Positions 13,799-63,043 of a DNA stretch of 64,000 bases are shown here, piece by piece. Position numbers and translations under genes: made by a program. The stretch lies in NCBI GenBank assembly GCA_050014495.1, contig JBEKDF010000002.1, forward strand, positions 64,001 through 128,000, read 5' to 3'. The first letter of the stretch is position 1. Every line of letters begins with the position of its first letter. The notes under the pieces were generated by a model. It was not told the origin of the DNA. It was given only the letters and a program-made list of their open reading frames with translations, and did no database searches. The stretch comes from Candidatus Bathyarchaeia archaeon. Lineage in GTDB: Archaea > Thermoproteota > Bathyarchaeia > TCS64.

Positions 13799-13999
13799 GT
13801 GCGCGCATTCCTCGGACACAAGAATATCAAGAACATACTGGTCTACGTTCAACTCGAGGAAGCAATCTACGATAAGCAGAATGAAGGCTTCATCAGCAAG
13901 GCGGCAACGAAGGTCGATGAAGTCTGTAAACTGGTCGAGTCTGGCTTCGACTACGTATGCGATGTCGGTGATGCTAAGGTATTCAGGAAGCGCAAGTGA
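13799..13999 (+). pseudogene. C-terminal remnant of a tyrosine integrase next to the tRNA-Leu 3' end
   Basis: LGHKNIKNILVY (box II His and catalytic Tyr) plus LVESGFDYVC...VFRKRK tail; the rest of the catalytic domain is absent. Confidence 0.8.
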
Positions 14000-14028
14000 C
14001 CTCCGAAAAGTGCGGAGGATGTATGAAA

Positions 14029-14116
14029 TGGTGCGGAGGATGGGATTCGAACCCATGAACCCCTTCGGGATAGGAGCCTCAGTCCTACGCCTTTGGCCTA
14101 GCTGGGCGACCTCCGC
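14029..14116 (-). tRNA. tRNA-Leu(GAG), CCA encoded, no intron
   Basis: GCGGAGG/CCTCCGC acceptor stem, TAGGA-CT-GAG-GC-TCCTA anticodon arm, long variable arm, GGTTCGAATCC, ACCA end. Confidence 0.97.
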
Positions 14117-14167
14117 CCACCACTGTTAGCCGACATCGCCCATTTATAGGTTTGCCGACGCGCGGGA

Positions 14168-14242
14168 TGGGGCCTCAGCTGGGAGTCGAACCCAGGTCAA
14201 GGGATCCACAGTCCCGTATGCTACCGTTACACCACAGAGGCC
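14168..14242 (-). tRNA. tRNA-His(GUG), G-1 and CCA encoded
   Basis: G-GCCTCTG...CTGAGGC-C-CCA; anticodon loop CT-GTG-GA; GGTTCGACTCC. Confidence 0.96.
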
Positions 14243-14354
14243 GCGCGAAAAGAGGGATACAGGGGATACATTAAAAGGGTTTCGCGGAAAATCCAAACCA
14301 AAAAGAGTCGATTCTCCGACACCCCTTATCTTTCGAGACTATGAAGGTAATTAA

Positions 14355-15023
14355 TTAGACGAGACTCTTTTCTTTCAGGTAGTCGGGTAGCTCCCTGACG
14401 CTAGGGAGGATGGCATTTGGCTTCACTGCCTCGAGTTTCTCTCTCCTCTGTGTGCCGGTGAGGACCGCTACCGTATGAGCCTTCGCGTTATGCCCCTCCT
14501 CAATGCCAATAGCGGTGTCGTCCACCTTGACCACCTCCGCTGGGTCCCTGATGTGGCAGTGGCGCATGGTACGCCTGATCATGGCGGGGCTGGGCCTCTC
14601 CTCGTCCACGATCTCGCTGCACGTCCAGTAGTCGATGAGTCCCGACTCCTCCCATCGAAGGTGCTTGACTATGTCGTGTGTTACGACCGCTGGGAAGCCG
14701 CTCTCAACGCCTACCGCTACTCCATGTTCCCTAAGCCAGGTGAACGTCTTCGAAGTGCCCTCAATCTCCCTCACCCTCCCAATATTATCTTGGAGCATCT
14801 CGACGAAGTCCCTGTAGATGGCCTGTGCCTTGTCCCCGCCGAGCATGTTTATGACCTCCCGCTTGTCGCGGCCACGCATGTCGTTCAGGGTCTCCATAGG
14901 GACCTCCACTCCGTGGCGCCGGAACGCGTCGTCGTAGCTGCGGAGGACGAGCGGCATACCATCGATCACGTCGTCGACGGTTGTGCCCGCCATGTCGAAG
15001 ACTACTAAGCGAATCCTCGCCAC
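14355..15023 (-). CDS. HAD hydrolase, phosphonatase-like
   Basis: VFDMAGTTVD, RPSP, VVKVDDT. Confidence 0.85.
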   Translation of the reverse strand: MARIRLVVFDMAGTTVDDVIDGMPLVLRSYDDAFRRHGVEVPMETLNDMRGRDKREVINMLGGDKAQAIYRDFVEMLQDNIGRVREIEGTSKTFTWLREHGVAVGVESGFPAVVTHDIVKHLRWEESGLIDYWTCSEIVDEERPSPAMIRRTMRHCHIRDPAEVVKVDDTAIGIEEGHNAKAHTVAVLTGTQRREKLEAVKPNAILPSVRELPDYLKEKSLV

Positions 15024-15026
15024 TCA

Positions 15027-18996: not shown

Positions 18997-19101
18997 CGGA
19001 GACAGATAGACCTCCTAACCCGACGCCTTTATCAGCGTTCTGGGAGCCCAAGGTTTATTTTAACGGGTCACGAAAGATCAACTGTTTCTGGAGTTGAAAG
19101 A

Positions 19102-19704
19102 ATGAAAGAATATGTTCTACCTAAACTACCCTACGCCTACGAAGCGCTTGAGCCCGTCATCGACGCTGCGACGGTCACTCTCCACCACGATAAGCACCAT
19201 AACGCCTACGTGGCCGGGTTCAATGGAACCCTGAAGAAGGTCGTCGAGGCCAGGGAGAAGGGCGACTACGCGACGATCAAGGCACTGGATAAGGATCTCG
19301 CTTTCCATGGGAGCGGGGTCGTCCTCCACAACATGTACTGGGAGAACCTCTGCCCCAAAGCGGAGTGCAAGGAGCCGATATCTGGTCCCTTCATGGAACA
19401 GGTGAAGGCTGACTTCAGCGACCTCGCCAAGCTGAAGGCGGAGATGAGTGCAGCTGCGAAGGCGGTGGAGGGCTCCGGTTGGGCCATCCTTGTATGGGAG
19501 CCCGCGTCTAAGCAACTCCTAGTGCTTCAGGCGGAGAATCACCAGAAGTTGACCATCTGGGGCGTCGTCCCACTCCTCGTCATAGACGTCTGGGAGCACG
19601 CCTACTACCTCAAGTACCAGAACAACCGCGCAGGTTACGTCGATGCCCTCTGGGGCATCGTGAACTGGGCCACGGTTGAGAAGCGGTTCAAGGCGGTCAA
19701 GTAG
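19102..19704 (+). CDS. sod: Fe/Mn superoxide dismutase
   Basis: LPYAYEALEP, HHDKHHNAYV, DVWEHAYY; start at ATG 19102. Confidence 0.96.
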   Translation: MKEYVLPKLPYAYEALEPVIDAATVTLHHDKHHNAYVAGFNGTLKKVVEAREKGDYATIKALDKDLAFHGSGVVLHNMYWENLCPKAECKEPISGPFMEQVKADFSDLAKLKAEMSAAAKAVEGSGWAILVWEPASKQLLVLQAENHQKLTIWGVVPLLVIDVWEHAYYLKYQNNRAGYVDALWGIVNWATVEKRFKAVK

Positions 19705-19717
19705 CCACCACCGTTTT

Positions 19718-20680
19718 TTAGAAGGTCACGTTCTTCTGCTCGGGTACCGTGAAGGGTGGCCTTTTGCCTTCTAGGAATGCCTTTATGCTCTCAGCGCAGC
19801 GCTCCGCCATCTTACGACGCGTTTCCCAAGTGGCGGAGGCCATGTGTGGGGTGACTATGACATTGTCCAGCTTGAATAGCTCCTCGGTGAGTGGGGCTGG
19901 TTCGATCTCAAAGACGTCAAGGGCCGCGCCCGCGATATTCCCAGACTTAAGCGCCTCGGTAAGCGCTTTCTGGTCGATGACGGGGCCGCGGCTCGTGTTG
20001 ATGACTATTGCACTCTTCTTCATCATCTGGAACTGCTTTGTGCTGAGTATCCCCTTCGTGGTGGAGATGAGAGGGACGTGGACACTGATGATATCAGAAG
20101 TCCTGAGGAGTTCATCGAAGGTGACGTACGTGATGTTATACTGCGCCTCGATGTCCTGACGGCGCACGACGTCATAGTAGATCATCTTGACGCCAAAGCC
20201 CCTGCCCCGCTTCGTCACCTCGACCCCAATCCTGCCGAGGCCGAGGAGACCGAGGGTCTTCCCACCCATGTCCCAGCCAAATGGGAAACCCTTCCGTTTC
20301 TTCGCCCACTCCACGCGGGTGTACCTGTCGGCCTCGGGTATACGGCGCATCCAGCCGAGGATGAGCGCCCAGGTGAGGTCTGCAACAGCGTCGCTGAGTA
20401 CATCCGGTGTGTGACAGACGTAGACGCCATGACGGGTGCAGGCGTCGACGTCGACAGAGTCGTAGCCCACGCCAAAGCGTGAGACTAGCTTGAGCTTTGG
20501 TGCCTTGGCGAGGAAGTCCTCGTTGACGTTCTCACCAGCGGCGAGGAGGACAACGGTATCACTTAGCTGTCCCGAGTAGTCGCCAGAGACGCGCACGACA
20601 TCGGCGAGGGGACGGAGCCCATCAGCTACATCCTCCGGGAAGTTGTCACTTTTATAACCGACGAGTACCTTCGGCTTCAT
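19718..20680 (-). CDS. D-2-hydroxyacid dehydrogenase (glyoxylate reductase-like)
   Basis: GVGYD, GLGRIG, INTSRG, LDVFE.EP, TPHMAS. Confidence 0.92.
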   Translation of the reverse strand: MKPKVLVGYKSDNFPEDVADGLRPLADVVRVSGDYSGQLSDTVVLLAAGENVNEDFLAKAPKLKLVSRFGVGYDSVDVDACTRHGVYVCHTPDVLSDAVADLTWALILGWMRRIPEADRYTRVEWAKKRKGFPFGWDMGGKTLGLLGLGRIGVEVTKRGRGFGVKMIYYDVVRRQDIEAQYNITYVTFDELLRTSDIISVHVPLISTTKGILSTKQFQMMKKSAIVINTSRGPVIDQKALTEALKSGNIAGAALDVFEIEPAPLTEELFKLDNVIVTPHMASATWETRRKMAERCAESIKAFLEGKRPPFTVPEQKNVTF

Positions 20681-20727
20681 AACAATCGTGTAATTGTTAG
20701 GTGTACCCGGTTAAAAGTGTCGAGGGA

Positions 20728-20997
20728 CTACCTCTTACGGTATACGCGGAACTTTACGTCGTTCCACCTGTCAGGACACTCATACTTGAACTCCTCCGGG
20801 TCGACCCATGGTATCTTGCCGCCGTAGCAGCAGTTCATCAGCGTCGGGAAGAGGTCGTGGTAGCAATATCCACAGATCCCGCCAGTCTTGTGTGTGTTCA
20901 CCTCGAACCTGTCCCCTACTTTGTGGCTAGCGTTGCACTCTTTCGCGACGTGTGTAACCTCGGCTACGTAGACTGGTTCGTCCGACAATTCCTTCAC
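20728..20997 (-). CDS. Small Cys-containing protein (TIGR04076-like)
   Basis: C..HKVGD.F, GIC, CPD...VKF pattern. Confidence 0.7.
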   Translation of the reverse strand: MKELSDEPVYVAEVTHVAKECNASHKVGDRFEVNTHKTGGICGYCYHDLFPTLMNCCYGGKIPWVDPEEFKYECPDRWNDVKFRVYRKR

Positions 20998-21073
20998 CGG
21001 ATGAACCTATATGGGGAGTGTACTAAAGCGATTCGGGGGAGGGGTTTTAGCCACCGGACCCTGTTCAATACTC

Positions 21074-21964
21074 ATGACGCTTTACAACGAGATAGTCAAG
21101 GAAACGAAGGGATTCGAGAAGGTGCTGGGCGTCGCTGTGAAGCACCTAGGGACTGGTGAGGAGGCGGGCTTCAATGGGGACGAGCTGTTCCCGACTGCGA
21201 GCGTCTTCAAGGTCCCAGTCATCGTTGAGCTGTACAGACAGGTTGAGGCGGGGAGGCTAAGCCTCGACGACAAGCTGGTGTTGAAGGACTCGGTTAAGGT
21301 CCCTGGCTCTGGCATCCTGAAGGAACTCAGCGAGGGACTTGAGGTCACCGTCAGGGATCTGAGCCAGCTGATGATGATCCTGAGCGATAATACAGCAACC
21401 GACATTATAGTGGAGAGGGTTGGGAAGGAGAACGTCACCGCGGCGATGCGGAGGCTGGGGCTAAGGAACACCTTGGTAGTTGCCGACTGCAGGGACATGC
21501 TCTTCGACCTCGTGGGGGAGAACGGTCTGCCAGATGAAGAAAAGACCTTGGACCTCTACCTCAAGTTGGCGAAGTTGGGGACGAATAAGGGGTCTTGGAG
21601 CCTCGGGACGGAGAGGAACAACATTACGACACCCGTGGAGATGAATCGACTTCTGGGCTTCATCGTAGATGCTACAGCGGCGGGGAGAGCGAGCTGCGAT
21701 GCGATCCTAGCCACGATGGGGAAGTGCCAGACAGGGGAGTATAGGGTGCCAAAATACCTCCCATCAGAGAAGGTGAGAATGCAGAGGAAGACTGGAAGCC
21801 TACCGGGGATCAGAAATGACGTGGGTGTCATTACGATCCTTGCGACTGGGGAGAAGTATTGCTTCAGCTGCTTCACAAAGGGAGCGTTGGATGTCTACGC
21901 GGTGGAGGAGGCAATAGCCAGGGTCAGCAGGAACGTCTACCAGTACTTCACCAGTGGGAAGTAG
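21074..21964 (+). CDS. Class A beta-lactamase-like serine hydrolase, no signal peptide
   Basis: ASVFK (SxxK), SDN, KTG, RNDVG. Confidence 0.88.
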   Translation: MTLYNEIVKETKGFEKVLGVAVKHLGTGEEAGFNGDELFPTASVFKVPVIVELYRQVEAGRLSLDDKLVLKDSVKVPGSGILKELSEGLEVTVRDLSQLMMILSDNTATDIIVERVGKENVTAAMRRLGLRNTLVVADCRDMLFDLVGENGLPDEEKTLDLYLKLAKLGTNKGSWSLGTERNNITTPVEMNRLLGFIVDATAAGRASCDAILATMGKCQTGEYRVPKYLPSEKVRMQRKTGSLPGIRNDVGVITILATGEKYCFSCFTKGALDVYAVEEAIARVSRNVYQYFTSGK

Positions 21965-22262
21965 CGATACATTGCGGACTACTATTTATCACGAATTTGG
22001 GTTTATTTCGGCACTCAACTCGACCTTTTTTCTGCGTCGGGCTTAAATTTTTGGGAAAAATGATTTACAAGCACCAACCTAAAACATGTTTACACACTTA
22101 TGTGCTTAAGCACCTAAATACATGTCCTTATAAGTGGGTATGTGCATATGTGTATTTGCGGGTAAGCAAGGAGAGTTAAGTGAGCCGCAGAATCCTGTGG
22201 GTGACTTGCTTGCCAGAAGACCGTTTAGCGCGGTGCAGGAAAAAGGATAGTTGAGATAGAAG

Positions 22263-22412
22263 ATGGGTCGAATAAACGTGGAACTCTCGGACGATATTGA
22301 GAAGAAGCTCCGGTTTAAGACGATCGAGGAGTTCGGCGGGAAAAAGGGGGACCTCTCACGGGCGATAGAGGAAGCCGTGAAGAAGTGGGTCACCCCAGAA
22401 CAGGACGCATAA
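22263..22412 (+). CDS. Small ribbon-helix-helix (CopG-like) protein, 49 aa; not in ORF track
   Basis: MGRINVELSDDIEKKLRFKTIEEFGGKKGDLSRAIEEAVKKWVTPEQDA: alternating beta strand followed by two helices. Confidence 0.78.
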   Translation: MGRINVELSDDIEKKLRFKTIEEFGGKKGDLSRAIEEAVKKWVTPEQDA

Positions 22413-22564
22413 AGGGACACGTCGGTAGCTAACCCGAATAAGGTAATCGGCCCCCTCCGCGGGCGCGGTGCAAAATGAGTGCACTATTAGAAGCGCACGC
22501 GGGGGATAGATAGGCACCCGGTTTCTATGGGAAGAATAGCAAGTGAAGGAAGAAGAAAAAAACA

Positions 22565-23026
22565 ATGACAATTCAAAACATGAACGCGGATGAACGCAGA
22601 TTGATGATACTCAGGGGAATAGGGCAGGACCACACAACCATAGAGATCGCCGCCGAGATGGGTGTCAGGAAATGGATGGTGCTAAACGACCTAAGAGCGA
22701 TGAACTACAGTAGAGACCCTGAGCTCAAACAGGCCTACCTCGATAAGGAGACACGAGCACACGCCGGTAAACTGTCGCTGGTCAACATAAGGGATGAGAG
22801 GTTCCACAATATGACTGGGATGACCTTCCAAGAGAAGAACTTCGAGAACATGATTAATTACTACAAGGCGGAGCTAGATTTGATATACAAGTCGAAAGAC
22901 GAGTTCACCGCTATCACGGGTCTATCTGGTGATATTCGTAAGACACTGAAGCGCAACGATATCCTAACAGGGCACAGAGGCAAGATCCAGCTTACAGCGA
23001 AGGCACGCGACTATCTCAGAAACTAG
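22565..23026 (+). CDS. Hypothetical protein with N-terminal HTH-like segment
   Basis: TTIEIAAEMGVRKWMVLNDL. Confidence 0.65.
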   Translation: MTIQNMNADERRLMILRGIGQDHTTIEIAAEMGVRKWMVLNDLRAMNYSRDPELKQAYLDKETRAHAGKLSLVNIRDERFHNMTGMTFQEKNFENMINYYKAELDLIYKSKDEFTAITGLSGDIRKTLKRNDILTGHRGKIQLTAKARDYLRN

Positions 23027-23036
23027 GTGAGACTAA

Positions 23037-23321
23037 TTGAGTTTCGAACAAGTGGAACGCATATCATACAACAAGAATCCCCAAGGGAGACCCGACTCTA
23101 AGACCGTCTTCTCTGATGTAATAAAATATCTGCCAAACGATCTCCTCATAGGGATCACGATTCTGCTACAGGACACGGGCTACATTACTATTAGGCCTAT
23201 AAAATTGGCGAGGATGGATTGGTCCCGGCTCGATAGAAGTGTGAAGAAGATGGGTGGTATATGGGTTTCCAGCACAAGCCTAAGTCACTGGAGCATCCCG
23301 CTGACACGTCTCAACCAGTAA
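23037..23321 (+). CDS. Hypothetical protein
   Basis: AGGTGA SD before TTG start; follows the previous gene directly. Confidence 0.6.
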   Translation: MSFEQVERISYNKNPQGRPDSKTVFSDVIKYLPNDLLIGITILLQDTGYITIRPIKLARMDWSRLDRSVKKMGGIWVSSTSLSHWSIPLTRLNQ

Positions 23322-23482
23322 TAATAACACTTTTCTTAATTATTCGAGTGACATAGGGATAGTGTAGCGCGCCCTTGACCCGATGAAGCGCTAATTGGTC
23401 CCGTTTCATTAGCGATTCAGCAGAACCGGACAGGGACGGGACCCACTTCAGCTATTGAAAAGGATATCCACTATCCCTTTAC

Positions 23483-23809
23483 TCATTTGTCCTTCTCCTC
23501 GTCTTCCCCGCGCTCTTCCTCCTCCTTCTCCTCAGGAGTCTCTATGGCAAATTCTTCTTCGTTTTCCCATTCTTCCCTATCTTCTTTCTCATCCTCTTGG
23601 TCCTCCTCATCTTCTTTTTCGGTTTCTTCCTCGTCGTGTTCTTTTTCCTGTTCTTCCTCGTGCTCGGCCTCACGGTTTTCGTTATCCTTCTCTGAACAGG
23701 TGATGATCATCTTATCATCGGGTGAGTCTTCATCATCGTGGAACAGCACCTTGATTGTCCCGCACGGATACAATTCTTTCACTACTTCGTAGACGCCGCA
23801 TTCTTGCAT
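23483..23809 (-). CDS. Very acidic low-complexity protein
   Basis: ATG start, short Cys-containing head, then an E/D-rich tail. Confidence 0.55.
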   Translation of the reverse strand: MQECGVYEVVKELYPCGTIKVLFHDDEDSPDDKMIITCSEKDNENREAEHEEEQEKEHDEEETEKEDEEDQEDEKEDREEWENEEEFAIETPEEKEEEERGEDEEKDK

Positions 23810-23924
23810 GGTTAGTCAGTGGAAATTCCCAAACTTTAATCCTCCTGATCCCAAGCGCGCGCTTGCTAGTAGTTCGTCCTAGCTTTCAGGGATTATACGC
23901 ACGGAAGAATGAGAAAATTGTGTT

Positions 23925-34782: not shown

Positions 34783-34922
34783 CACTGCATCCTAACTCAC
34801 GGAGCCTCGCTGTAAAAGCATTATGCACACCGCGATGATTTCAATAAAACGTATAAAAAGATGAATACGGAGGGTTCACAGATCTTCGCGCGAAAGGAAT
34901 ATATTCTATCAGGTAGCCGGAG

Positions 34923-36170: not shown

Positions 36171-36435
36171 AGATAGACAGGGTACGCTCAATATTTCGCG
36201 CGCATCCTCAGCACTGAGAAGCAGCTTTGATATGAGGATTCGAGCCACAATTAAACTAAGCTCAATGATAGATCTCTATTCAGCAGTTTCCTCTTCGATA
36301 TCTTACAATTAGGATTTTATCTTCTAGATTGCCCCTCTGTTTTTGTAGTTTTAGCCTAGTTGAAGTTGCGAATACCAATGCTAGGAAAGTAACTAAATTG
36401 AGTCGCGGACTATGCCTTAGAACTGTATTATATGA

Positions 36436-49385: not shown

Positions 49386-49626
49386 GGGTGAAAGGAAAGG
49401 GCATCGAATCTATAAGATCAACTAATCGAAAGCGCTGTCGACGGTAAGGGTTTCACCAAATCGAAACGAATAAGCTTCTGGTACTTCCCAGGGTGCCATC
49501 CATTCACGTTTGAGGTTTTTAAATACTGGATTTTATTAACCAAGTTTCGCAGCAGCGTTCTTAGCGCGCGCGCAATTTTGAGTCATCGGAAAAGGCTTAA
49601 GTTCGGCTATCTATGTGCTGGGCTAA

Positions 49627-52154: not shown

Positions 52155-52314
52155 GTTGAGAACTTCCACCTAACATGTGATGTTGGTGCGCCTTATAGCT
52201 ATGTATTTTTAATAAAAATATTCGTCACGCGCAAATGGGGCCATAGTCTTATCCCCAAAACCCAACTGCTTATACTTACTACGTACTAACCCTAACATTC
52301 CCTACTCCCACACG

Positions 52315-52783: not shown

Positions 52784-53221
52784 ATGTCTAGAAAACGTAC
52801 ACAAAAAAGTATAGGACTAGATGAACTTCCCCAAAAAGTACGAAGCTGTCTCATCAAGTTGATGACCGAGTTTCATATCGATGATGTCGAGGAAGCACTG
52901 GTGAAGATGGCTGCGCTCGCTGATAGTAACAGTCACGAGTTTTGGAGTATGGTGGGGGATCAGGGTGAGATGAAATATAAGTCTCGACACTTTAAGGAAA
53001 TGAATCGAACAGTGGCTACCATTAAGAAGACCGCTGAGGAAAAGACTAAAACGGAATATGAAAGGGGATGGGGTGTCGCCTATCAGAGCTATGCAATAAT
53101 GTACCCATGTAGTATCTGTGGGGGCATGATTCCCCTTACACCCAACAGCGAGGCGCATAAGGCAATCGTTAACTATCTTCAAGAGAAGGGTTGGGCACAT
53201 TTTGAGTGTATGAACAGGTAG
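52784..53221 (+). CDS. Hypothetical protein with C-terminal CxxC...HxxC zinc site
   Basis: AGGTGA SD; YPCSICG...GWAHFEC. Confidence 0.65.
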   Translation: MSRKRTQKSIGLDELPQKVRSCLIKLMTEFHIDDVEEALVKMAALADSNSHEFWSMVGDQGEMKYKSRHFKEMNRTVATIKKTAEEKTKTEYERGWGVAYQSYAIMYPCSICGGMIPLTPNSEAHKAIVNYLQEKGWAHFECMNR

Positions 53222-53874
53222 TATCGATAGAGTTATGGAGATCTGACAATTATGCTTCGAGGGTCTTAAGATAAAACAACGAATTATCCACGGTCTTATG
53301 TCGGTGAAGTCACGGGGTTTATAGGTGGTAATAATGAGATTTATTGATGGGATTACGGAGGAGAAATAGGCATCTTCGATTTTTTCAGTTAATGAGTCTT
53401 CCTGACATCTCTATGAATGGCTATAGTATTTCTGGAGAAGTAGAATGTTTAAGACAGGAGTGTGGATGTTTGTGTTCGTACAATCGCGCGTGTAATCTAT
53501 TGTATAGCGTCTCGCGTGCGCCGATGTGTGTGGGGCGCATGGGATTTTGAGTTCATTTATTTGTGGTTTTCTGCTTGCGTGACTTGGGCTTGTCGCGATG
53601 TTCATTTTGGCAGTCTGTTCATTTTGGACAACTATGATGCTATAGTGTGTTCATCATGATGCGTAGTTGGAGTTTTGGAGTTATTGGTTGTCTCTAGTGT
53701 TTTTTTTATTGGGCTTAATTTTCACCTGTTTTTTTTTGATTTTTGTTTGCAGAATCGCAAAAGATGCTCTCTTAGCTTTTTCTCCACCTTAGTTTTTGTC
53801 TCTGGTTAGGTTTCCTTCGTAACAAGTTTTTTGAGGAAGGTGTGTGTGCGCGCAGTTTACCTTAGTGGAAGTGT

Positions 53875-54765
53875 CTAGAAGATCCTGACCCCGCTGCGCC
53901 TAGCATCTTTGAGCTCCTCCTCATCCCAGCCCCCAAATATAGACGCGGCTAACTTGAGGTAACCAATCTTGTTAGGGTCTTTTCCCTCGAGGGTCGCTAC
54001 GAAGGCGTCCAGCCTCACCGAGTCCTCGCATCCGAGGAGTAGCCCCTGGTTCTTCGCAGTGTTCGGCTTGATCGCCTCCTCCGCGGTTTTCCCGATGGAG
54101 GCCGTCAGCACTCCGTCCACCATTCCCTTCACGTCGAAGATGGAGTGGTACACCTTGTTGATGTCAATGATGCACTGATCCAGCTTACAATCAAGCTCTC
54201 CGTGATACTTGCTTCGCCCTGGCCCAGGTATCATACCGAACAGGTTCTTCAGTGTGAGGCTTAACACGATGGGCTCGTGGTTCAGCCTGTACTTGGCTAG
54301 GCTCAGGAAGGTGCCTCCCCTCATCTCGAAGAGGCACGTTGGGACCTGCGCGTACATCTCATCGAAGAGTACCGGTGGGTATTTGTCCGCCATCTTTTTG
54401 ATCACCCCCGGCTCCACGACGCGTTTCGCCCAAACCTCCTCAGTCACGTTCAGATACTCCACATCGTGCTTCTTCAGCACGTCGCCGACACCCGAGTACT
54501 TGAGGAACCACTCGTCACTCTTCTTCAGGTCACTCCTCTTCTGGGATCCAATTCCCTTCCCATTCAGAGCGTCCTCCGTCCTCGCCCACCCGTAGCTCTC
54601 AACGACCAGCGCCTCCCCGCCGATCTCAGACAGCACGCCGTCTAGCACAGCCGCTTCCGTGAAGTTGTTGATGGTCCCCCAATTCGGTTTGATGATAACG
54701 GGTGGCCTCAGATTCAGCTCAGAGACAATGTTATGGTATATCGAAGGATCCGTTGACTGCTCCAT
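53875..54765 (-). CDS. DUF362 family protein
   Basis: IIKPNW, VVES, SLTLKNLFGMIP, VDG. Confidence 0.8.
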   Translation of the reverse strand: MEQSTDPSIYHNIVSELNLRPPVIIKPNWGTINNFTEAAVLDGVLSEIGGEALVVESYGWARTEDALNGKGIGSQKRSDLKKSDEWFLKYSGVGDVLKKHDVEYLNVTEEVWAKRVVEPGVIKKMADKYPPVLFDEMYAQVPTCLFEMRGGTFLSLAKYRLNHEPIVLSLTLKNLFGMIPGPGRSKYHGELDCKLDQCIIDINKVYHSIFDVKGMVDGVLTASIGKTAEEAIKPNTAKNQGLLLGCEDSVRLDAFVATLEGKDPNKIGYLKLAASIFGGWDEEELKDARRSGVRIF

Positions 54766-54824
54766 AATGACTTTACCATATCTCAACAACTCTTCCCCCG
54801 AAAATAGGATCTCAGGTTAGGGGA

Positions 54825-55991
54825 CTACGCGAAGACTTCCTCAAACCTCTTCACGAGCTCCTTCTCCTGGCCGGGTAGCAGCATCAGAGTGTTGACTATG
54901 AAGTTGTTGCTGTCCCCCCAATAGCGGACCCAGACCTCCGGGTCTCCCTCCCTAAGCTTCTTCACGATCACCCCAACCTCGTCGATCCCCTTGTCGAGGA
55001 AGTGCACATCGAGGCCCAGGGTGTTGTACGCTGTCCCTGTACCGCTCTTGGGAATGAAGTTGATACGCGCCTCCTTGAGGCCGGGGAGCTTCCTGATCCT
55101 CTTCTCGATGTAGCGAGCCCTCTCCCACGCCGGTGCTATCCTCTCCGCCTCGTGGTCGAGCGCCATCCACCTCTTGAATGCCACAACTAGTCCAACTATC
55201 TCCTGCCGGTCGAGTTTGTAACCCCGACCGATGCCGCGCCACTTCCCCGGCGTCTCATCCGGCCCTGACTCTACCCCGATGAAGCTATGTAGAGCCATCG
55301 CCTCCATGAGGTCCCTCCGCCCGATGGCGAAGCCGGTGCTATTCGGCCCATGCACGTACTTCCCACCGAAGGCAATAATATCCGCCTTCATGTCCGTGAA
55401 CATCTTGAAGTTGCTAGTCGGATAAGTCATGCCCGCCGCGTCGACGATGACTGGCACACCATGATTATGAGCCATCTTGAGCAGATCCTTCAACTGGGGC
55501 ACCCCCCTCTTCGGCACTATTGGGTAAGCGTAGTGGATCGCCGCAGTCCTATCCGTTATCGCGGCCTCGAACTCATCCACACCACAGCCCCAGTTCTCGT
55601 CCCCAACGAAGACGAACTTGCCGCCTGCCACCTCCATGGCGCGGTCATAGACGTAGAGCCTATTGTTTCTCCCGATGATGAACTCATTCCTCATCCCCGT
55701 CGAGTCGGGGAGGCGCCTCATCTTCTCGGGGTCCTTCCCAGCCATGCATGCGGCAGCGCCTAGGACGAGGGCCGCGAATCCCCCGCTAGTTATCCAGGCG
55801 GCTTCCGCGCCAGTCCCCTTAGCAATGATTGCGCTCCCCTTCTCAAGCAGCTCCCACATGTTACAGTAGCTCTCATTCGCCCTATCCATCGCCTCTTGCA
55901 CCTCCCTTGGTACGGTGCTACCACCCAATCGAGTAAGGGCGAAAGCCGCATTCACCACTCTCTTGCAACCAAGCTCAGAATAAACACTCAT
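54825..55991 (-). CDS. SelA/DgaE-like PLP-dependent enzyme
   Basis: VVNA...TRLGGS, VIVDAA, FGGKYVHGP.STG, GIGRGYK. Confidence 0.85.
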   Translation of the reverse strand: MSVYSELGCKRVVNAAFALTRLGGSTVPREVQEAMDRANESYCNMWELLEKGSAIIAKGTGAEAAWITSGGFAALVLGAAACMAGKDPEKMRRLPDSTGMRNEFIIGRNNRLYVYDRAMEVAGGKFVFVGDENWGCGVDEFEAAITDRTAAIHYAYPIVPKRGVPQLKDLLKMAHNHGVPVIVDAAGMTYPTSNFKMFTDMKADIIAFGGKYVHGPNSTGFAIGRRDLMEAMALHSFIGVESGPDETPGKWRGIGRGYKLDRQEIVGLVVAFKRWMALDHEAERIAPAWERARYIEKRIRKLPGLKEARINFIPKSGTGTAYNTLGLDVHFLDKGIDEVGVIVKKLREGDPEVWVRYWGDSNNFIVNTLMLLPGQEKELVKRFEEVFA

Positions 55992-56033
55992 GGAAGGGAA
56001 GAAAGCCACGACGCGATAAAACAGTTTGCAGAA

Positions 56034-56501
56034 TCAGCGGTACTCCTCGATCCCCCGCTCCCTGCGGAGAAAGTCGCCCAGATCGAAGACATTCTTGAGC
56101 ATCATCTTCTCGTCACTAATCTCAATCTTCCCATAGCCGAGGCAGTCCCCCCCGAGCATCACGAGGAAACATGCACCCTCAACGAAATCGCCCTCAGACT
56201 TTAGTATGCTCTCTGCGAAGACGTCTCTTCCACAGGCGAAGAGCCACCCAACCCGCTCATCCACCCACACCTTGTTGGGTCCCTCCAACCTACCCAGCTC
56301 ACGGAGCAGTATGGCGCTTGGAATGAAATCCCCTCTGGTTCTCCCGAGGAGTTTCCCAGCGTAGACCATCCTACCCCTGTCAAAGATCTCTGCTGCGACA
56401 TCCGACCCCGCGGCGAAGCGCCTATCGTTGAGGTTTACACGCGCCCCAGCGGGCTCGTAGACGGCACCAATAGCCACTAGGAAATCCTTGAGTTCCCTCA
56501 T
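56034..56501 (-). CDS. Nip7-like/PUA-domain protein
   Basis: YAGKLLG, KVWV, LFACGRDVF, LGYG, DLGDFLRRE; overlaps the m5C methyltransferase gene. Confidence 0.7.
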   Translation of the reverse strand: MRELKDFLVAIGAVYEPAGARVNLNDRRFAAGSDVAAEIFDRGRMVYAGKLLGRTRGDFIPSAILLRELGRLEGPNKVWVDERVGWLFACGRDVFAESILKSEGDFVEGACFLVMLGGDCLGYGKIEISDEKMMLKNVFDLGDFLRRERGIEEYR

Positions 56502-57382
56502 GGCTTCACCACCTTCGCGACGAAGAATCCCTGAGTCCCAGTCTCATCTGGCCAGAACCTCCTGCACCTCGCCAACTCTGAGCTCAGGCTCCTGCCCAGA
56601 ACCTCCGTCAACGCGTGGCTACCTGGTCCTACTACCTCCTCCAGCATGATGTCATGATTATCCATGAGCCACTGCACGTTTAGCTCATCCTCCTCAGGCT
56701 CGAGGCTACACGTGGTGTAGACGAGAGTTCCCCCATGCCTGAGCTGCCCCACAGCGGCCCCTAGTAGCCTCCTCTGCTCCGCCGCGTTACCCTCAACATC
56801 TCCTATGCTACGTTTGCTGAACCAAGATCTATCTGTCACGTAATTCCCGGAGCAGGGTGCGTCGAGTAGAATCTTGTCGAAGAGGGTGCCCCCGTAGTCG
56901 AGCCCCACCGCATCGGCATGGTATGCGACGCAGTTCTCCACCCCTGTACGCTCAAGGTTGTTCTCCAGGGCGTATAGGCGGTCCCTGCGTACATCGACGG
57001 CGACTATGGCTCCCCTGTTCTCCATCCACGCTGCCATCTGCGTCGTCTTACCCCCTGGGGCTGCACACATGTCTAGCACCACCTCTCCTTCACCAGGCCT
57101 GAGCACCTCCACGGGGAACTGAGCCGCCGCCTCCTGGATCGAGTATAGGCCTAGGAGGTACTCGAAGCTCGCGCCGAAGCTCGCCTCACCCCCCTCGACA
57201 TAGAATCCATTCCTCAGCCACGGTATACCTGTAAGCCTCGCCCCCCGCGCCTCGAGTCTACCCACGACCTCCTCCCTACCAGATAGGAGAGTGTTGACCC
57301 TTATCGCCCTCTTCGTCCTCTCGTCGCCCCTAAGCTCATGTCCCATCGCGCTGTAGCGTTCGAGGAAGAAGCCGGCGCCCAT
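56498..57382 (-). CDS. RsmB/Nop2-family RNA m5C methyltransferase
   Basis: DMCAAPGGKT, DAPCSG, YTTCS. Confidence 0.93.
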   Translation of the reverse strand: MGAGFFLERYSAMGHELRGDERTKRAIRVNTLLSGREEVVGRLEARGARLTGIPWLRNGFYVEGGEASFGASFEYLLGLYSIQEAAAQFPVEVLRPGEGEVVLDMCAAPGGKTTQMAAWMENRGAIVAVDVRRDRLYALENNLERTGVENCVAYHADAVGLDYGGTLFDKILLDAPCSGNYVTDRSWFSKRSIGDVEGNAAEQRRLLGAAVGQLRHGGTLVYTTCSLEPEEDELNVQWLMDNHDIMLEEVVGPGSHALTEVLGRSLSSELARCRRFWPDETGTQGFFVAKVVKP

Positions 57383-57474
57383 GGGACGCTTCTACTCAGG
57401 AAGCGATTTAACCATTCCCACGGACCTACCCAGGTTTATAGCCTCGACGCAGACTCATTTTCAAGGTGAGCTAA

Positions 57475-58512
57475 TTGGCTAGACCTAGGGCAAGGGAATT
57501 TGGCATCCAGCTGGGCTCGATGGAGGCTGGTAAGCTGAACACTATCACAGATGTCGAAGGCGTCGGAGTCGGTCACTCAACCCTCATCGAGGGTGACTCA
57601 ATCAGGACCGGCGTCACCGCCATAACACCCCACTCTGGGGACCTCACCGAGGATAAGGTCGTAGCCGCCGTCGACCTATTCAATGCTTACGGGAAATCCA
57701 CCGGCCTACCCCAGATAATCTACGAGGGAGTCCTTGAAACACCAATAATGCTCACTGAGACCCTGAACACGTGGAGGGTCGCTGATGCAGTAATCGACTA
57801 CCACCGAGACAAGATGGGACTCGAACTCGGCTCTCTAAACGTCGTCGTTGGGGAGACGAACGGTGGCTACCTCACCGACAACCTCGGCAGGCAAGTAGGC
57901 GTAGAGAATGTTTTCGCAGCCCTTGATCTTGCCAGAAGCTACAAGGGCAGAAGTAAGGTTCCCGAGGGCAACGTCGGTGGGGGCACCCCGATGACCGGCT
58001 ATGGCTTCAAGGGAGGTATAGGCACCGCCAGCCGACTCAGCGACGGCTTCACAGTCGGAGTACTCGTCCAGCTCAACTGCGGCAGCAAGGAGGACCTCAC
58101 CATCGCCGGTGTCCCCGTCGGAAGTGAGGTCAAACTGCCGAGCAAGCCAGTTGCAAGCCCAGGAAACAGCATAATGATGATAGTCGCGACAGACCTCGCC
58201 CTGGATTCGAGGCAGCTCTGGAAGGTAGCGAAGAGGGCAGCCCTCGGCCTGGCACGCACCGGCACCTACAGTGGCAATGGAAGCGGCGACTTCACAATAG
58301 CTTTCACCACTGGGAAGATGCCTCCCACTGTCCACGGGGACGAGTCACTAAACCCCGTTTACAAGGCAACTGTGGAGGCGACGGAGGAGGCGGTCGTCAA
58401 CGCCCTATTCGCAGCGGAGACCATGACTGGCTACAAAGGCCATATGAGGTACGCCCTCCCCCTCGACCAGGTCAGGGAGATATTCGCCCATTACGGGCGT
58501 GACCTACCCTAG
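57475..58512 (+). CDS. DmpA-like P1 aminopeptidase
   Basis: NTITDV.GV.VGH, GFKGGIGTASR, GNSI, GSGDF, EATEEA. Confidence 0.92.
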   Translation: MARPRAREFGIQLGSMEAGKLNTITDVEGVGVGHSTLIEGDSIRTGVTAITPHSGDLTEDKVVAAVDLFNAYGKSTGLPQIIYEGVLETPIMLTETLNTWRVADAVIDYHRDKMGLELGSLNVVVGETNGGYLTDNLGRQVGVENVFAALDLARSYKGRSKVPEGNVGGGTPMTGYGFKGGIGTASRLSDGFTVGVLVQLNCGSKEDLTIAGVPVGSEVKLPSKPVASPGNSIMMIVATDLALDSRQLWKVAKRAALGLARTGTYSGNGSGDFTIAFTTGKMPPTVHGDESLNPVYKATVEATEEAVVNALFAAETMTGYKGHMRYALPLDQVREIFAHYGRDLP

Positions 58513-58561
58513 CTGGTAAACGTTAAACCCCCTCGAGCGCCAAATATCTCGGTGCATCTTC

Positions 58562-59893
58562 TTGCCTAGCCTCCAAGGTCCAAAAATAGTCGCGGGACCA
58601 CCAGGCCCACGAGTCACCAAGCTCCTCACCGACTCTGGCTTGGACCCATCCTCTTACTCGAGCCCCATAGTCGACGAGGCGAGGGGCATCTACGTCAAGG
58701 ACCTCGACGGGAACATCTTCTTAGACCTCATCTCGGGGCGCTGCGTCGCCAACACTGGCTACAACCATCCCAGGGTCGTTGAGGCTGTGAAGGCACAAGT
58801 CGAAAGGAGCATTCACTGGCAGACTGAACAGTCCTACACACTCATCTCTAGACTCGAGGCGATGTTAGCCTCGGGACCGAAGCAGGTCTACTGGAGCCAA
58901 TCAGGGAGCCTCGCCAACGACCACGCAATCAAGGCCGTTCGAAGAGCCACGGGGAGGCCACTGATCCTGAGCTTCACGGGGAGCTACCACGGGAGCAGCA
59001 TGGGAGCCATCAGCCTCAGCGGCTACGACCCAAGCATGAAGAGGCACTACGGTCCCCTCCTCCCTGGCATCATCCACGTCCCATACGCCTCATGCTACAG
59101 GTGTCCCCTGAAGATGAAGCACCCCGATTGTAGTCTCGCATGCCTCAGCTACATAGAGGACGTAGCCTTCAAGAGCTACATACCCTCAGACGAAGTCGCG
59201 GCCATCTTCGTTGAGCCAGTCCAGGGGGACGCCGGATGGCATGTCCCCCCACCTGGGTGGCACGATGGATTAAAGAGACTCTGCGAAAGGCATGGTATCC
59301 TCCACGTGGCGGATGAGGTTCAGACTGGCTTTGGAAGAACGGGGACATGGCTAGGGATGGACCACTGGGGCGTCAAACCCGACGTCGTGATACTTGGGAA
59401 GGCGATGGGGAGCGGCGTTCCAATCAGCGCAGTCGTCCTCGGCAGGGACTTACTCGAGTCGACAGACCCCGAGCCAATCCCCATACACGCCCAGAGCTTC
59501 AGCGCCACACCCCTCGGCACCGCCGCGGCACACGCCACAATGGATGTAATCCGTGACGAGAAACTCTGTGAAAACTCGGAGAAGATTGGGGTATACATGA
59601 GAAAGAGACTAATCGAGCTCATGGATGAGCACCCGAGCATCGGCGACGTAAGGGGAATAGGCCTGCTGATAGGCATAGAGATAGTCAAAGACAGGGAGAA
59701 AAAAATCCCAGACCCCGGAACCGCCAACGCGATCTGCTCGGAGGCATTCAAGAGGGGCGTATACACACTCAACATGGGTAGCTACGGTGGCAGAGCCATC
59801 CGAGTCGCCCCACCCCTAATAATCGACGAGGCACAGGCTGACACCGCCATAGATCTACTCGAGGAATCCATAGGAAAGGCGGAGACTGGTTAG
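58562..59893 (+). CDS. Class III PLP aminotransferase
   Basis: GSYHG, EPVQG, DEVQTGFGRTG, GKA. Confidence 0.92.
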   Translation: MPSLQGPKIVAGPPGPRVTKLLTDSGLDPSSYSSPIVDEARGIYVKDLDGNIFLDLISGRCVANTGYNHPRVVEAVKAQVERSIHWQTEQSYTLISRLEAMLASGPKQVYWSQSGSLANDHAIKAVRRATGRPLILSFTGSYHGSSMGAISLSGYDPSMKRHYGPLLPGIIHVPYASCYRCPLKMKHPDCSLACLSYIEDVAFKSYIPSDEVAAIFVEPVQGDAGWHVPPPGWHDGLKRLCERHGILHVADEVQTGFGRTGTWLGMDHWGVKPDVVILGKAMGSGVPISAVVLGRDLLESTDPEPIPIHAQSFSATPLGTAAAHATMDVIRDEKLCENSEKIGVYMRKRLIELMDEHPSIGDVRGIGLLIGIEIVKDREKKIPDPGTANAICSEAFKRGVYTLNMGSYGGRAIRVAPPLIIDEAQADTAIDLLEESIGKAETG

Positions 59894-61188
59894 GGTCTGT
59901 AGCTCCTCACGAAGTCCTCGGTCGCGAATAGGTAATTGTCGACATCCTCAGTTGTGTGGGGGCTGCTTATCCAGCAGTGGCTCACGTTCGGGTTGAGGAA
60001 GACTATACCCTTATCAAGCATGTTTGTGAAGTACGCCTTCGTGGCGGCCAAATCGTTTTTGGATGTGTCCGAGGCGTTGCGGGGGATCTTCGCCTGGAAG
60101 TGGATGGCGAAGGTTGAGCCGACGCCTGTAACCGTTGCGGGCAGCTTTCCTCTCTCAAAGACGTCTTCGAGTCCGTCTCTCATTCGCCTCCCCAGCTTGT
60201 CGATGCTGATGTAGATCTTCCCATCCTTGAGGAGATCTAGAGTCATACAGCCCGCGATCATGCTCACGGGATTGCCCGTGAATGTGCCACCGTGGGCGAC
60301 GCGTTCCTCCGTCTTCGGATACTTTCTCTGGTCTATGAGTTCCATTATATCGGCTGGGCCGCAGAAGGCTCCGATGGGGAAACCCCCCCCTATGATCTTG
60401 CCGAGGATGGTCAGATCGGGTTTGACTCCGTAGAGCTCCTGGGCTCCCCCCGGGGCTAGGCGGAACCCCGTCACCACCTCGTCGAAGACTAGTAGGGTCC
60501 CGGTCTCGTCGCAGACTTCCCGTAACCCCTGTAGGTAGCCTGGCTCTGGTGTGATGAAGCCCGCGGCTGCCATCACCGGCTCTAGAATAATGCATGCATA
60601 TTCCCTGGTTCTGATGCGTTTTTTAGCTGCCTCTAGGTCGTTGAAGGGAACCGCATCTGTATCCTCGGTCGTCTTCGGGTTCAACCCCGCTGACTCCGAT
60701 TTCGTGTATGGATAGGTCACCGCTTTGTGGAGGCTATCATATCCCCCATGCCATCCCCCCTCTACCTTGAGCATCTTCATCCTGTTAGCGTATGCTCGGG
60801 CAAGGCGGGTCCCATACATGTTAGCCTCAGTCCCGCTCGTGCAGTATCTCACCATCTCCGCCGAGGGGACGTTTCTCACGATCCTCTCCGCCAGCTCGAT
60901 CTCAAGCTCGTGGCTGAATCCTATGTGGGTCCCTTTGGGTAGCTGCTTCTTCACGGCGTCCATCACCCTCCGTGGGCTGTGACCCAGGATCAGCGCGCCG
61001 TGGCCCACCCAGTAGTCCGTGTACTCGTTCCCATCCACGTCTCTGAGCTTTACGCCCTGGGCTTCCTCAACGAAGAATGGGTATGGAGGAAGTGCACGTA
61101 TCCCATAGCTAACACCGGAAGGTAGAACCTTGCAGGCCCTATCAAACAACTCCTTTGACTTCAGTGTCTTCCTAGCGAAACCGCTCAT
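59890..61188 (-). CDS. Glutamate-1-semialdehyde aminomutase-like class III aminotransferase
   Basis: SGTEA, GGWHG, DEVVTGFR, GKIIGGGFP, GTF.GNP; no hem genes nearby. Confidence 0.85.
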   Translation of the reverse strand: MSGFARKTLKSKELFDRACKVLPSGVSYGIRALPPYPFFVEEAQGVKLRDVDGNEYTDYWVGHGALILGHSPRRVMDAVKKQLPKGTHIGFSHELEIELAERIVRNVPSAEMVRYCTSGTEANMYGTRLARAYANRMKMLKVEGGWHGGYDSLHKAVTYPYTKSESAGLNPKTTEDTDAVPFNDLEAAKKRIRTREYACIILEPVMAAAGFITPEPGYLQGLREVCDETGTLLVFDEVVTGFRLAPGGAQELYGVKPDLTILGKIIGGGFPIGAFCGPADIMELIDQRKYPKTEERVAHGGTFTGNPVSMIAGCMTLDLLKDGKIYISIDKLGRRMRDGLEDVFERGKLPATVTGVGSTFAIHFQAKIPRNASDTSKNDLAATKAYFTNMLDKGIVFLNPNVSHCWISSPHTTEDVDNYLFATEDFVRSYRP

Positions 61189-61599
61189 CAGGTACCCCAG
61201 CCATGGGATACGGGTCTCACGTATTAATTATTTTTAACGGGATTTTTAATTGATTTAATGGGGAATGACTTTCGGGGTCGTTTATAAACGTCATTATGTT
61301 TGGTGATGTGGTTTTCACCTTTTGATCTTAGAAATTTTTAAACTATTACGAATGAAAGCAAAGCTAATGATTTCGTCACAAGCTGTGCGTGTATAATGAC
61401 CAAATTACCCTTCAACACCGATACTATCGGTAGTTATAATCTATTTACCTAAACCAACCGATATTTCTGCCGGATTGGATACTGATATACTGATCATGCA
61501 AGGATCGAAGGCGACATAGAGCTGTTCTAAATACTAGCATTCGCGCACTCGAGATTAGATGTGTATACTATCAAATAACTGAGAATCGTTAGGGTATAA

Positions 61600-62490
61600 G
61601 TGGTGACTACCCTGCAATTGAGCTCCAAGATAGCTGTCGTCGCCGCTCTCTCTCTCGGCGCAATCATGCTAGCCGCCCTAACCATAATGCAGACACCAAA
61701 CTTCAACACAAGAACAATCCAAGTTGAATACGTCGGGTACAAAGATTTCAAGGAACTAGCCGAATCCGCCAAAGTGATCGTGACGGGAACCGTCGAATCG
61801 ATCAAGTCCACAAGCAACGCCAGCGCCCAGATCCCGTCCACAACCTTCGAGGTGAAGATCGAGAGAATATCCAAGCTCTCCCCAGACGGGGGAATGGGAA
61901 CAGTCATGGTTCAACAGTTCGGCTCCAAGAGTGGAAGATTCACGGTGGAGGAAGCCGATAACCCCTTGATGAAGATGGGCGACGAGTACGTGTTCTTCCT
62001 CGTAGGCGGAGAGGATAATGGCTGGCAAGTTCCCTACGGAACAACCGGGCCATACGGGAAATTCCAAGTCATCTCAGGCACCATTTACCCACTCAGCCAA
62101 AGCTGGTCACGGTATCAGGGGATGAGCCTGTATCAGTTCCTCGGCGAGGTGGATTCCGCACTCGGAGTCAAGACGACCTACTCGTCCCTCTGGGAGGCCA
62201 AACCTGAGATAGTGAATCAGACCGAATGGAAGATCCTACCTCCATCGGAGTATCCCGCCCCCGTTTGGCTTCTGGAGACGTGGATCGGGAAGATCGGTCT
62301 CCATTGGGATGAGCTGTCGAAGAAGGGTGTCATCCTCTGGTCCTGTGGTCGTGTGGGGAATGGGAAGCTACTGGTAAGCATGGATGTTGTCTCAAATGAG
62401 ACCGTGAGTACCTTCATGGAAACGATTCAGGGCGAGGTCCCACCCGGAATACTTATGATAGCAAAGGGTTCGCCAGCTATAGCGGTCTAG
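61600..62490 (+). CDS. Secreted or membrane-anchored hypothetical protein
   Basis: N-terminal hydrophobic helix; IVTGTVES and GDEYVFFL segments. Confidence 0.7.
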   Translation: MVTTLQLSSKIAVVAALSLGAIMLAALTIMQTPNFNTRTIQVEYVGYKDFKELAESAKVIVTGTVESIKSTSNASAQIPSTTFEVKIERISKLSPDGGMGTVMVQQFGSKSGRFTVEEADNPLMKMGDEYVFFLVGGEDNGWQVPYGTTGPYGKFQVISGTIYPLSQSWSRYQGMSLYQFLGEVDSALGVKTTYSSLWEAKPEIVNQTEWKILPPSEYPAPVWLLETWIGKIGLHWDELSKKGVILWSCGRVGNGKLLVSMDVVSNETVSTFMETIQGEVPPGILMIAKGSPAIAV

Positions 62491-62505
62491 ATTACATTCT
62501 ATGCT

Positions 62506-62910
62506 TTAGTTGAAGACATTCGTGTGCAGTGCGCGAGATATGTTGAGATAAGTTGGATTGCTAGATGCGACTTCAATTATTAACGCGTCGTAGCCCGCGT
62601 TTCTTATTCCGTCTGCGAACCAACCTGAACAGTTACCCTCACCCCATATTTGGGTCAGTGGCGATTTGCCGGCCACTACGAATCTCGTGTCTCCTGGTAT
62701 CCCCGTTTTATTGATGGGGCCCAGGGCGAAGACGAGTTTATTTTTTGGGCCAAGTGGATCTATCCTTGGTTTCAACTCTTTATAGAGTAGATCGATGGCT
62801 AGTCCTTTTCCGCCGACGAAGAATCTTGCATCTTTTTCATTAAATTTTTCGTTAATAGTCTTCCCATTTGTTAGGTTAACTCTCAAAATTTTCCCATGCA
62901 TTCCAAACAT
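62506..62910 (-). pseudogene. N-terminal fragment of aldehyde:ferredoxin oxidoreductase
   Basis: GKILRVNL, DPLGPKN, KSPLT, AGYDALIIE; only 134 aa, family similarity stops near 62535. Confidence 0.85.
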
Positions 62911-63043
62911 TTATCTGCCAAACTTTTCATCCCAAAAATGATTATTTAACATTATGCGCCAGTTCTTGTTTTAATGTTCTGAGCTGTAACCCTGAATGGC
63001 TTGCGCATGAGAAAAAACCTGCGCGCGCGAAAAAATGAGTAAT

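Follow-up and report, generated by a model that had tools for sequence, protein, structure and literature searches.

Short tracts of alternating C and G recur in a 64,000-bp stretch of a Bathyarchaeia genome (the window, G000:C2:64001-128000) and across the 3.1-Mb, 92-contig assembly that holds it (G000). These tracts mark DNA joints: they are enriched in intergenic DNA, they stand where homology to other sequences ends, and most of the parental sequences that could be aligned lack them. It is rather probable that the tracts are filler laid down during end joining, in which some 5-9 new bases of alternating G and C would be placed between two broken ends. The main rival to this reading is that they are transposon scars.

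Gene boundaries are those called in this analysis, so that some small genes are counted within the 560 kb of intergenic DNA scanned in G000. Genomes with at least 40 copies of GCGCGCGCG are termed tract-rich, and 26 of the 301 genomes of the class qualify. The sequencing runs that contain the window are mostly peat metagenomes, and every relative of its DnaG-like gene carries the label Bathyarchaeota or Bathyarchaeia.

Alternating-CG tracts and DNA joints

A preliminary description of the window listed 15 alternating-CG motifs, held that most lie in A/T-rich DNA, and proposed that they form a junction signature at the edges of inserts and at gene truncation points. All 15 are present where it placed them, and their surroundings are roughly as described (local GC 0.41-0.54), except at 14159, where GC is 0.62. 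An excess over background is found in window and genome alike. Intergenic tracts of at least 6 bp number 10 in the window against 1.5 expected, a count reached in none of 200 simulations; coding tracts of this length number 8 against 21.6 expected. In the intergenic DNA of G000, GCGCGCGC ranks first among 65,440 8-mers, with 844 copies against 4.0 expected under a first-order model (209-fold, or 26-fold under a second-order model). Tracts of 6, 7, 8, 9, 10 and 11 or more bp number 253, 144, 170, 119, 90 and 6 (58, 9, 3, 0, 0 and 0 expected), and the excess amounts to about 700 tracts. Five-base tracts (457 against 288 expected) are weak evidence alone, and other dinucleotide repeats show a slight excess at most. 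Length is nearly capped at 10 bp in G000, with a softer limit in G021 and G016.

Tracts of at least 8 bp occur within 15 bp of a protein-homology stop in 43 of 425 cases, compared with 8 of 1,275 intergenic controls. Aligning the genome to itself gives 355 ends of homology; tracts are found at 74 of these, 35 of which are ends of insertion sequences (ISs), against 0-14 in each of six shifted controls. Some fragments of 160-330 bp are bordered by tracts on either side, and the partner sequence has none. High-identity junction clusters carry a tract in 33 of 78 cases, against 4.3% of random intergenic 34-mers. The proposed junction signature thus stands for homology ends and truncation points; it does not extend to the pair of tracts around tRNA-His or to those in the gap gene, which are not joints.

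Within spacers, tracts avoid the 40 bp before starts, show a mild peak 10-30 bp past stops and are otherwise evenly spread, with a density of 0.98/kb in convergent spacers and 0.56-0.61/kb in others. Clustering was considered and rejected (70 close pairs against 61 +/- 6 expected). Placement after stops and in convergent spacers, together with palindromic, intergenic sequence limited to about one helical turn, is what might be expected of terminators, or of sites kept by selection to bind a regulator or chromatin protein, and three of the window's motifs, the two flanking the tRNA and one at 22463, are indeed conserved. The tracts nevertheless keep no fixed distance to starts, lie at gene truncation points and are essentially missing from the sister genomes G001 and G010. 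Moreover, none of the 20 intergenic tracts of at least 8 bp found at orthologous collinear sites is kept, which makes the conserved chromatin or regulatory site entertained in the preliminary description unlikely; we give selected binding sites or terminators very little credence as a general explanation.

Chimeras formed at self-complementary words during library preparation or assembly would also place tracts at joints, and many contigs do break beside tract-flanked IS ends. Sequence identical to the window was, however, recovered across the tracts at 23367, 23855, 34887 and 36197 in run X7 and across those at 52228 and 62531 in run X9, both from studies not flagged as a possible source of the window, so these six tracts are not assembly chimeras. 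A metagenome contig, possibly of shared source, is identical over 46501-63492. One deletion joint, described below, is seen at full depth in two studies; the trait follows lineages, not assemblies; and one-mismatch variants of the tracts are mostly transitions, as expected of sequences that are inherited and decaying. Chimeric joining is scarcely credible as the source of the tracts.

Parental sequences and insertion sequences

One joint can be compared with a closely related parent, which is the window itself:

55016..55964, no strand assigned: intact parent DNA lost in a sister strain, inside the pyridoxal phosphate (PLP)-enzyme open reading frame (ORF) 54825-56009 on the minus strand

In the sister strain (X12 and X17, from two studies; ~93-97% identical), these 949 bp are deleted and exactly GCGCGCGC stands at the joint, so that 55015 is connected to 55965 through 8 inserted letters with 0 shared letters. 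Depth at the joint equals that of the whole contig (41.3 in X12, 10.2 in X17). The parental ends read ...GAGGC|CC and TT|GCAAC...; GC stands at the end of the left side and at the start of the right side, neither side contains GCGC or CGCG, and no IS remnant is present. The ORF resembles a DgaE/SelA-related family, with a score under the cut-off. Over window positions 19001-39000 the runs show no tract-sealed joint, the sister strain being collinear there.

A search for deletions with both parental sides available, in 5.1 Mb of pooled DNA, initially gave nine hits; one was removed as a coding substitution and two proved to be one event, leaving seven further independent deletions of 79-512 bp. 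Each has an 8-10-bp tract at the joint, with ~5-9 new letters inserted, and the parental breakpoint has GCGC or CGCG in two of the seven. One of these deletions falls within an IS copy. Of the 68 rows obtained for joints with one parental side available, 19 were excluded because they represented duplicate loci, IS ends or inherited tracts. The remaining 49 have a tract that the partner lacks, and in this set, biased as noted below, GCGC or CGCG occurs at the parental break in only four. Filler and parent overlap by 0, 1, 2, 4 and 5 bases in 19, 20, 8, 1 and 1 of the 49 joints (27.9, 14.5, 4.6, 0.4 and 0.2 by chance), and in 12, 19, 9, 1 and 1 of 42 joints under an alternative filter. An in-phase overlap of one or two bases is therefore found in 28 of 49 joints, compared with 19 expected, and in 28 of 42 under the alternative filter. 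Viewed from the retained fragment, the new bases are almost always compatible with a start on G.

That parents mostly lack the tract argues against a cut site or recombinase core and for filler added during end joining. Breakpoints in relatives had been expected to fall on tracts: many joints do carry them, but the parental sequences mostly have no such site, and the proposal of cleavage at CGCG/GCGCGC or of a recombinase core fails at 45 of the 49 one-sided joints and at both ends of the sister-strain deletion. For joints with known parents, the cut-site reading is largely refuted.

A broader form of the same idea is that the tracts are pre-existing fragile or cut sites (Z-DNA-prone runs, targets of a GCGC/CGCG nuclease, or a recombinase core) at which rearrangements begin or end. 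Alternating CG is the classic Z-forming sequence, and the fall-off beyond 10 bp might arise if longer runs are unstable. The IS elements discussed below clearly choose such sequences, and PMC11529989 reports a GCGm4C methylation motif in Asgard archaea from wetlands (Atabeyarchaeia and Freyarchaeia). But pre-existing sites leave the source of about 700 excess tracts unaccounted for, and the tract is missing from the parental ends in the sister-strain deletion and in five of the seven other two-sided cases. Nor did the restriction-modification genes suggested by the preliminary description fit: no C5 methylase was found in the five genomes searched, and the distribution of N4/N6 methylases does not follow that of the trait, with matches in tract-free G001 and none in G016 or G079. 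We regard pre-existing sites as quite improbable.

Filler could be laid down in two ways. Each 3' end may be tailed with GC repeats, the tails then pairing, or a short (GC)4-5 oligomer may splint both ends. Because (GC)n is self-complementary, such a filler could join any two ends in either orientation; ends that already finish in G, C or GC may be somewhat favoured. Scars in needed DNA would be purged, leaving those in intergenic and decaying DNA to age through C-to-T changes.

The preferred phase of the tracts depends on lineage (G007, G013 and G023 against G000, G005 and G012), CG-first in some genomes and GC-first in others. The bases just outside are likewise biased by lineage, towards AT in G000 (159 of 577 ends; 11% expected) and TA in G079 (85 of 180). 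This bias is limited to two bases, and a longer fixed template was rejected since flank information stops there. Palindromic extension of the flanks shows no excess over chance, which argues against an origin from hairpins or P-nucleotides.

According to the transposon reading, an IS chooses CG-alternating sites for insertion, its target duplication makes them longer, and its excision together with adjacent DNA leaves a tract behind. Copies of the IS in question are found at the following places:

C5:82611-83894, C43:15781-17065 and C61:6043-7308 in G000, and about 40 contig ends of that assembly: IS copies, no strand assigned
L223-L241 in G109: IS copies, no strand assigned

The elements are 1.1-1.3 kb long and have terminal inverted repeats and a single DDE_Tnp_1 + DUF772 transposase. 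The transposase reaches the threshold of Pfam DDE_Tnp_1 and lies below all NCBIfam family cut-offs, being nearest to IS1182 and IS5 (74-78 bits against a cut-off of 270, and 44-64 against 140). Tracts border the elements on both sides. Among strict IS-end matches in G000, 60 of 67 have 5-10 alternating bases outside, in fixed phase, and tract-flanked ends also occur in tract-poor genomes and in G016, G012, G002 and G109. The flanks differ between near-identical copies in G109, so that the flank beyond at most one base is target DNA. A target duplication of 4 bp fits all 10 complete elements in the genus, implying targets of 12-14 bp in four of them, and one of 8 bp fits 4 of the 10; no empty site was found. 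Known IS5 (ISH1 group) and IS1182 elements share the transposase domains, inverted repeats and size; family sizes and target duplications are tabulated in PMC6352166 (8 bp for the ISH1 group). The elements described here differ in their sub-threshold scores, in a duplication that is not a constant 8 bp and in the residence of all subfamilies in alternating-CG tracts. The clade comprises several subfamilies, all of them in tracts of 6-11 bp or more even where tracts are rare.

The tract-flanked IS ends speak for the transposon reading; the patchiness of the trait suits a mobile element, and GCGC or CGCG is present in the parents of two of the seven two-sided cases. IS presence is also associated with tract load: in assemblies that are mostly fragmented, the clade was detected in 14 of the 26 tract-rich genomes and 29 of 275 others, as expected if the IS either makes tracts or thrives on them. 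Other counts do not fit. About 60 IS ends stand against some 700 excess tracts, and the clade was not found in 12 of the 26 tract-rich genomes and was found in tract-poor ones. G015, assembled in 20 contigs and free of N over the 117 kb read, lacks any match to DDE_Tnp_1 and contains 53-64 nine-mers, whereas G297 and G192 hold the IS with just 1-3 nine-mers. Neither end of the sister-strain deletion shows a target, an IS remnant is missing there as well, one tract-sealed deletion lies inside an IS copy, and the rarity of GCGC or CGCG in one-sided parents points the same way. Simple expansion from GCGC to (GC)4-5 was not found at any collinear site. We consider transposon scars improbable as the origin of the tracts. 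Instead, the IS5/IS1182-like elements probably insert into tracts secondarily, as targets, and would be users of the tracts rather than their makers.

Other repeat families at contig ends have no tract flanks, so host filler at every insertion is not supported, and two short IS-ended elements have no tract inside. At L043, L070, L055 and L064 (in G000, G012 and G016) one IS end adjoins a shared stretch of ~60 bp in place of a tract, possibly as part of a composite element.

Distribution, candidate enzymes and known systems

The tract-rich genomes belong to several families, and G001 and G010, of the same genus as G000, have 0 and 1 copies of GCGCGCGCG. Placing the trait on a PriS tree of 41 genomes requires 7-10 changes of label. 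This number, and the patchiness of the trait even within genera, point to an accessory gene as the probable determinant, one frequently lost or moved. Profile searches for Ku/LigD, reverse transcriptase and C5 methylase covered five genomes each, and those for PolX and archaeo-eukaryotic primases (AEPs) covered all 301.

Several observations weigh against filler laid down during end joining. None of the enzyme candidates found in these searches of single families tracks the trait. Ku and the LigD polymerase, in the five genomes, are present in G000, G016 and tract-free G001 and were not found in tract-rich G021; missing Ku or IS is weak evidence in G021 (L114-L133) and G079 (L243-L262), single-contig entries that are N-joined scaffolds with 23 and 60 gaps per 400 kb, respectively. 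PolX has a match in 4 of 12 tract-rich genomes outside the order and was not found in the other 8. Primase copy number does not follow the trait, and a contrast of PriS and PriL between 21 rich and 20 free genomes, hand-picked and analysed with a quick tree method, gave no diagnostic residue, the best columns lying near the shuffle limit and coming from one clade. The joints themselves have weaknesses as well. The parents of the seven two-sided deletions are just 73-94% identical, which weakens each case, and only one two-sided joint has a parent of >93% identity; the one-sided joints are biased to the side with a paralogue. The junction clusters lack a tract in 44 of 78 cases, many of them from one multicopy gene family. 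The association of the IS clade with tract load counts here too, the rich genomes that lack the IS being mostly fragmented. Finally, 11-mers number 5 against the ~25-40 that we estimate from chance extension, for which filler offers no explanation.

PolX is also present in tract-free G001, G010, G024, G058 and G088. Extra AEP primases were rejected as candidates, G079, G287, G099, G021, G227 and G199 having a single copy, as was a second PriS-like protein of 439 amino acids (G000:C20:26047-27366), full length in 5 of the 41 genomes with one short piece in addition; the five genomes are all of one genus. Y-family polymerase and the copies of PolB, PriL and NurA were examined, and none tracks the trait. 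Reverse transcriptase (RVT_1) was not found in any of the five genomes. The Z-alpha profile also had no match in five genomes, an uninformative result since its control matched nowhere.

The tracts act like end joining with insertion and differ from each known route tested. N-nucleotides added by terminal deoxynucleotidyl transferase (TdT) and the templated insertions of Pol theta likewise stand between two parental ends, but those bases are random or copied from nearby flanks, whereas the tracts are a single self-complementary repeat seen at hundreds of places, not a copy of the flanks. N-addition by TdT or PolX was rejected on the grounds that the inserted bases are not varied and that family X polymerase occurs in only the 4 of 12 rich genomes mentioned. 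HIP1 of cyanobacteria and the repetitive extragenic palindromic (REP) elements of enterobacteria resemble the tracts as highly repeated short palindromes, and REP elements share with them the role of IS targets. HIP1 also lies inside genes and is tied to a methylase, and REP elements are longer stem-loops; neither is known to arise as new sequence at deletion joints.

Bases added in non-homologous end joining (NHEJ) by Ku and LigD are not, to our knowledge, a fixed repeat. By this route (described in PMC12019639), ends that are unrelated become connected, with some bases deleted and others added, and G000 has a cluster of Ku, ligase and Prim-Pol genes; it was rejected because, among the five genomes searched, its genes are present in tract-free G001 and were not found in the gapped scaffold of tract-rich G021. 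The cluster lies at G000:C3:64206-67463, the ligase being of the ATP-dependent type by resemblance, and Ku and Prim-Pol are neighbours in G016 and G001 also.

The nearest chemistry to the proposed filler is that of PriSL. According to PMC3333859 and PMC12019639, PriSL adds bases to ends and anneals strands via 2-4 G-C pairs, so that archaeal breaks are repaired by terminal transfer followed by annealing, with G/C-biased insertions. The products described there are mostly 1-2-bp indels and runs of G or C, unlike the fixed alternating patch of 6-10 bp seen here, and PriS and PriL occur in rich and tract-free genomes alike. The joints do not fit microhomology-mediated end joining as such, since the sister-strain joint has 0 shared and 8 new letters and the seven others have ~5-9 new ones. 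A precedent for alternating dinucleotide DNA made without a nucleic-acid template is DRT3, a phage-defence system whose reverse transcriptases are described in PMC13314766 as carrying out protein-directed synthesis of free poly(GT/AC); synthesis of this type was rejected, with no RVT_1 match in the five genomes. A literature search that was thin on subscription journals found no paper describing fillers of alternating CG at joints in archaea.

A fixed, countable scar would bear on how archaea connect broken ends when no homologous template is at hand, and would record each joining event in uncultured lineages. Sister pairs with and without the trait (G007 and G000 against G001 and G010, G199 against G132, G227 against G140) make the gene findable by profiling, and an enzyme able to put a self-pairing linker on any end would, if real, represent new chemistry and be of use in cloning. 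The scar-dwelling IS is a separate lead on target choice. As a bolder and doubtful extension, scattered Bathyarchaeia might carry a mobile repair module whose polymerase writes a self-complementary (GC)4-5 patch on broken ends without a nucleic-acid template; the patch, a sticky end of universal use, would allow DNA to be deleted, captured and shuffled, and the IS clade would have specialised on the scars as safe landing sites.

Individual tracts of the window

The tracts considered as joints, with one gene fragment, are as follows (window positions; a strand applies to the gene fragment only):

13801..13806: 6-bp tract at the start of a putative tyrosine-integrase C-terminal remnant, 0-3 codons away
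23367..23372: 6-bp intergenic tract, no homologue aligned
23855..23862: 8-bp tract, not present in G012, which is collinear here (weak at 73% identity)
34887..34892: 6-bp tract upstream of a major facilitator superfamily (MFS) gene, likely joint
36197..36203: 7-bp tract in a gap where relatives have one or two extra MFS paralogues
49564..49573: (GC)5 tract at the joint of a deletion that removed a third tandem M20 peptidase gene (~1.6-1.7 kb)
52228..52232: 5-bp tract, followed 3 bp on by a 30-bp piece of a multicopy repeat
53485..53490: 6-bp tract within an A/T-rich island, no homologue aligned
53848..53853: 6-bp tract near the right edge of the island, where homology of relatives begins 20-24 bp beyond
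62506..62910, minus strand: N-terminal gene fragment of aldehyde:ferredoxin oxidoreductase (AOR), Pfam AFOR_N residues 6-125, E 5e-38
62531..62535: 5-bp tract where the AOR fragment breaks off on its 3' side
63021..63029: 9-bp tract between the AOR fragment and an amidohydrolase gene

Two of these are well supported as joints. The tract at 49564-49573 is a deletion joint viewed from both sides: homology to X12 extends on the left to 49566 and resumes on the right from 49573, with paralogue DNA between, and homology to G002 picks up at 49576. The extra M20 peptidase paralogue is present in six of the eight relatives retrieved. At 62531-62535, comparison of the AOR fragment with five intact paralogues places the end of homology at residues 138-143, and the tract begins at codon 142. 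The 9-bp tract at 63021 is presumed to be the other edge of this fragment; amidohydrolase homology to G015 stops at 63040, and no homologue was aligned across the tract.

Joints are plausible at 13801, 34887, 52228 and 23855, the support being one-sided or weak at the last three. At 13801, EamA homology to G012 stops 16 bp earlier, and integrase-like homology begins at 13790 or 13811 depending on the homologue; the remnant is assigned to the tyrosine integrases from motifs of its homologues and has no Pfam match. At 34887, the upstream homology of a G002 MFS paralogue (84%, 201 bp) begins at the final tract base, and G012 and G016 have different letters in place of the tract. At 52228, a 96.7% match to contig C79 begins 3 bp past the tract. 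No parent was aligned across the tracts at 22228, 23367, 36197, 53485, 53848 and 63021. The gap around 36197 spans 0.3 kb in the window, 2.9 kb in G002 and 1.4 kb in G012, and the A/T-rich island around 53485 is not covered by X12, X17 or X19.

Some motifs that the preliminary description took for junctions are conserved instead. The tracts at 14159-64 and 14242-47 around tRNA-His are kept in all three aligning relatives (G012, G016 and G009). The second copy of GCGCGGTGCA, at 22463, is conserved in G012 and may therefore be an operator. Its caution about tracts inside gap and other genes was well placed: these occupy variable codon positions in collinear orthologues and are made of ordinary codons.

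The CGCGCG motifs on either side of tRNA-His (14159-14247) could, as leader and trailer, lengthen the acceptor stem of the precursor. The direct repeat GCGCGGTGCA (22228-22237 and 22463-22472) brackets a ribbon-helix-helix gene at 22263-22412. A 28-bp repeat has 134 copies in G000 (allowing up to 4 mismatches) and resembles the coding end of a small-gene family; several copies end abruptly at tracts, and one piece is window 52236-52265. The tandem arrays of M20 peptidase (47937-51653) and MFS (34923-36170) genes vary in copy number among relatives, and the window is short of copies in both.

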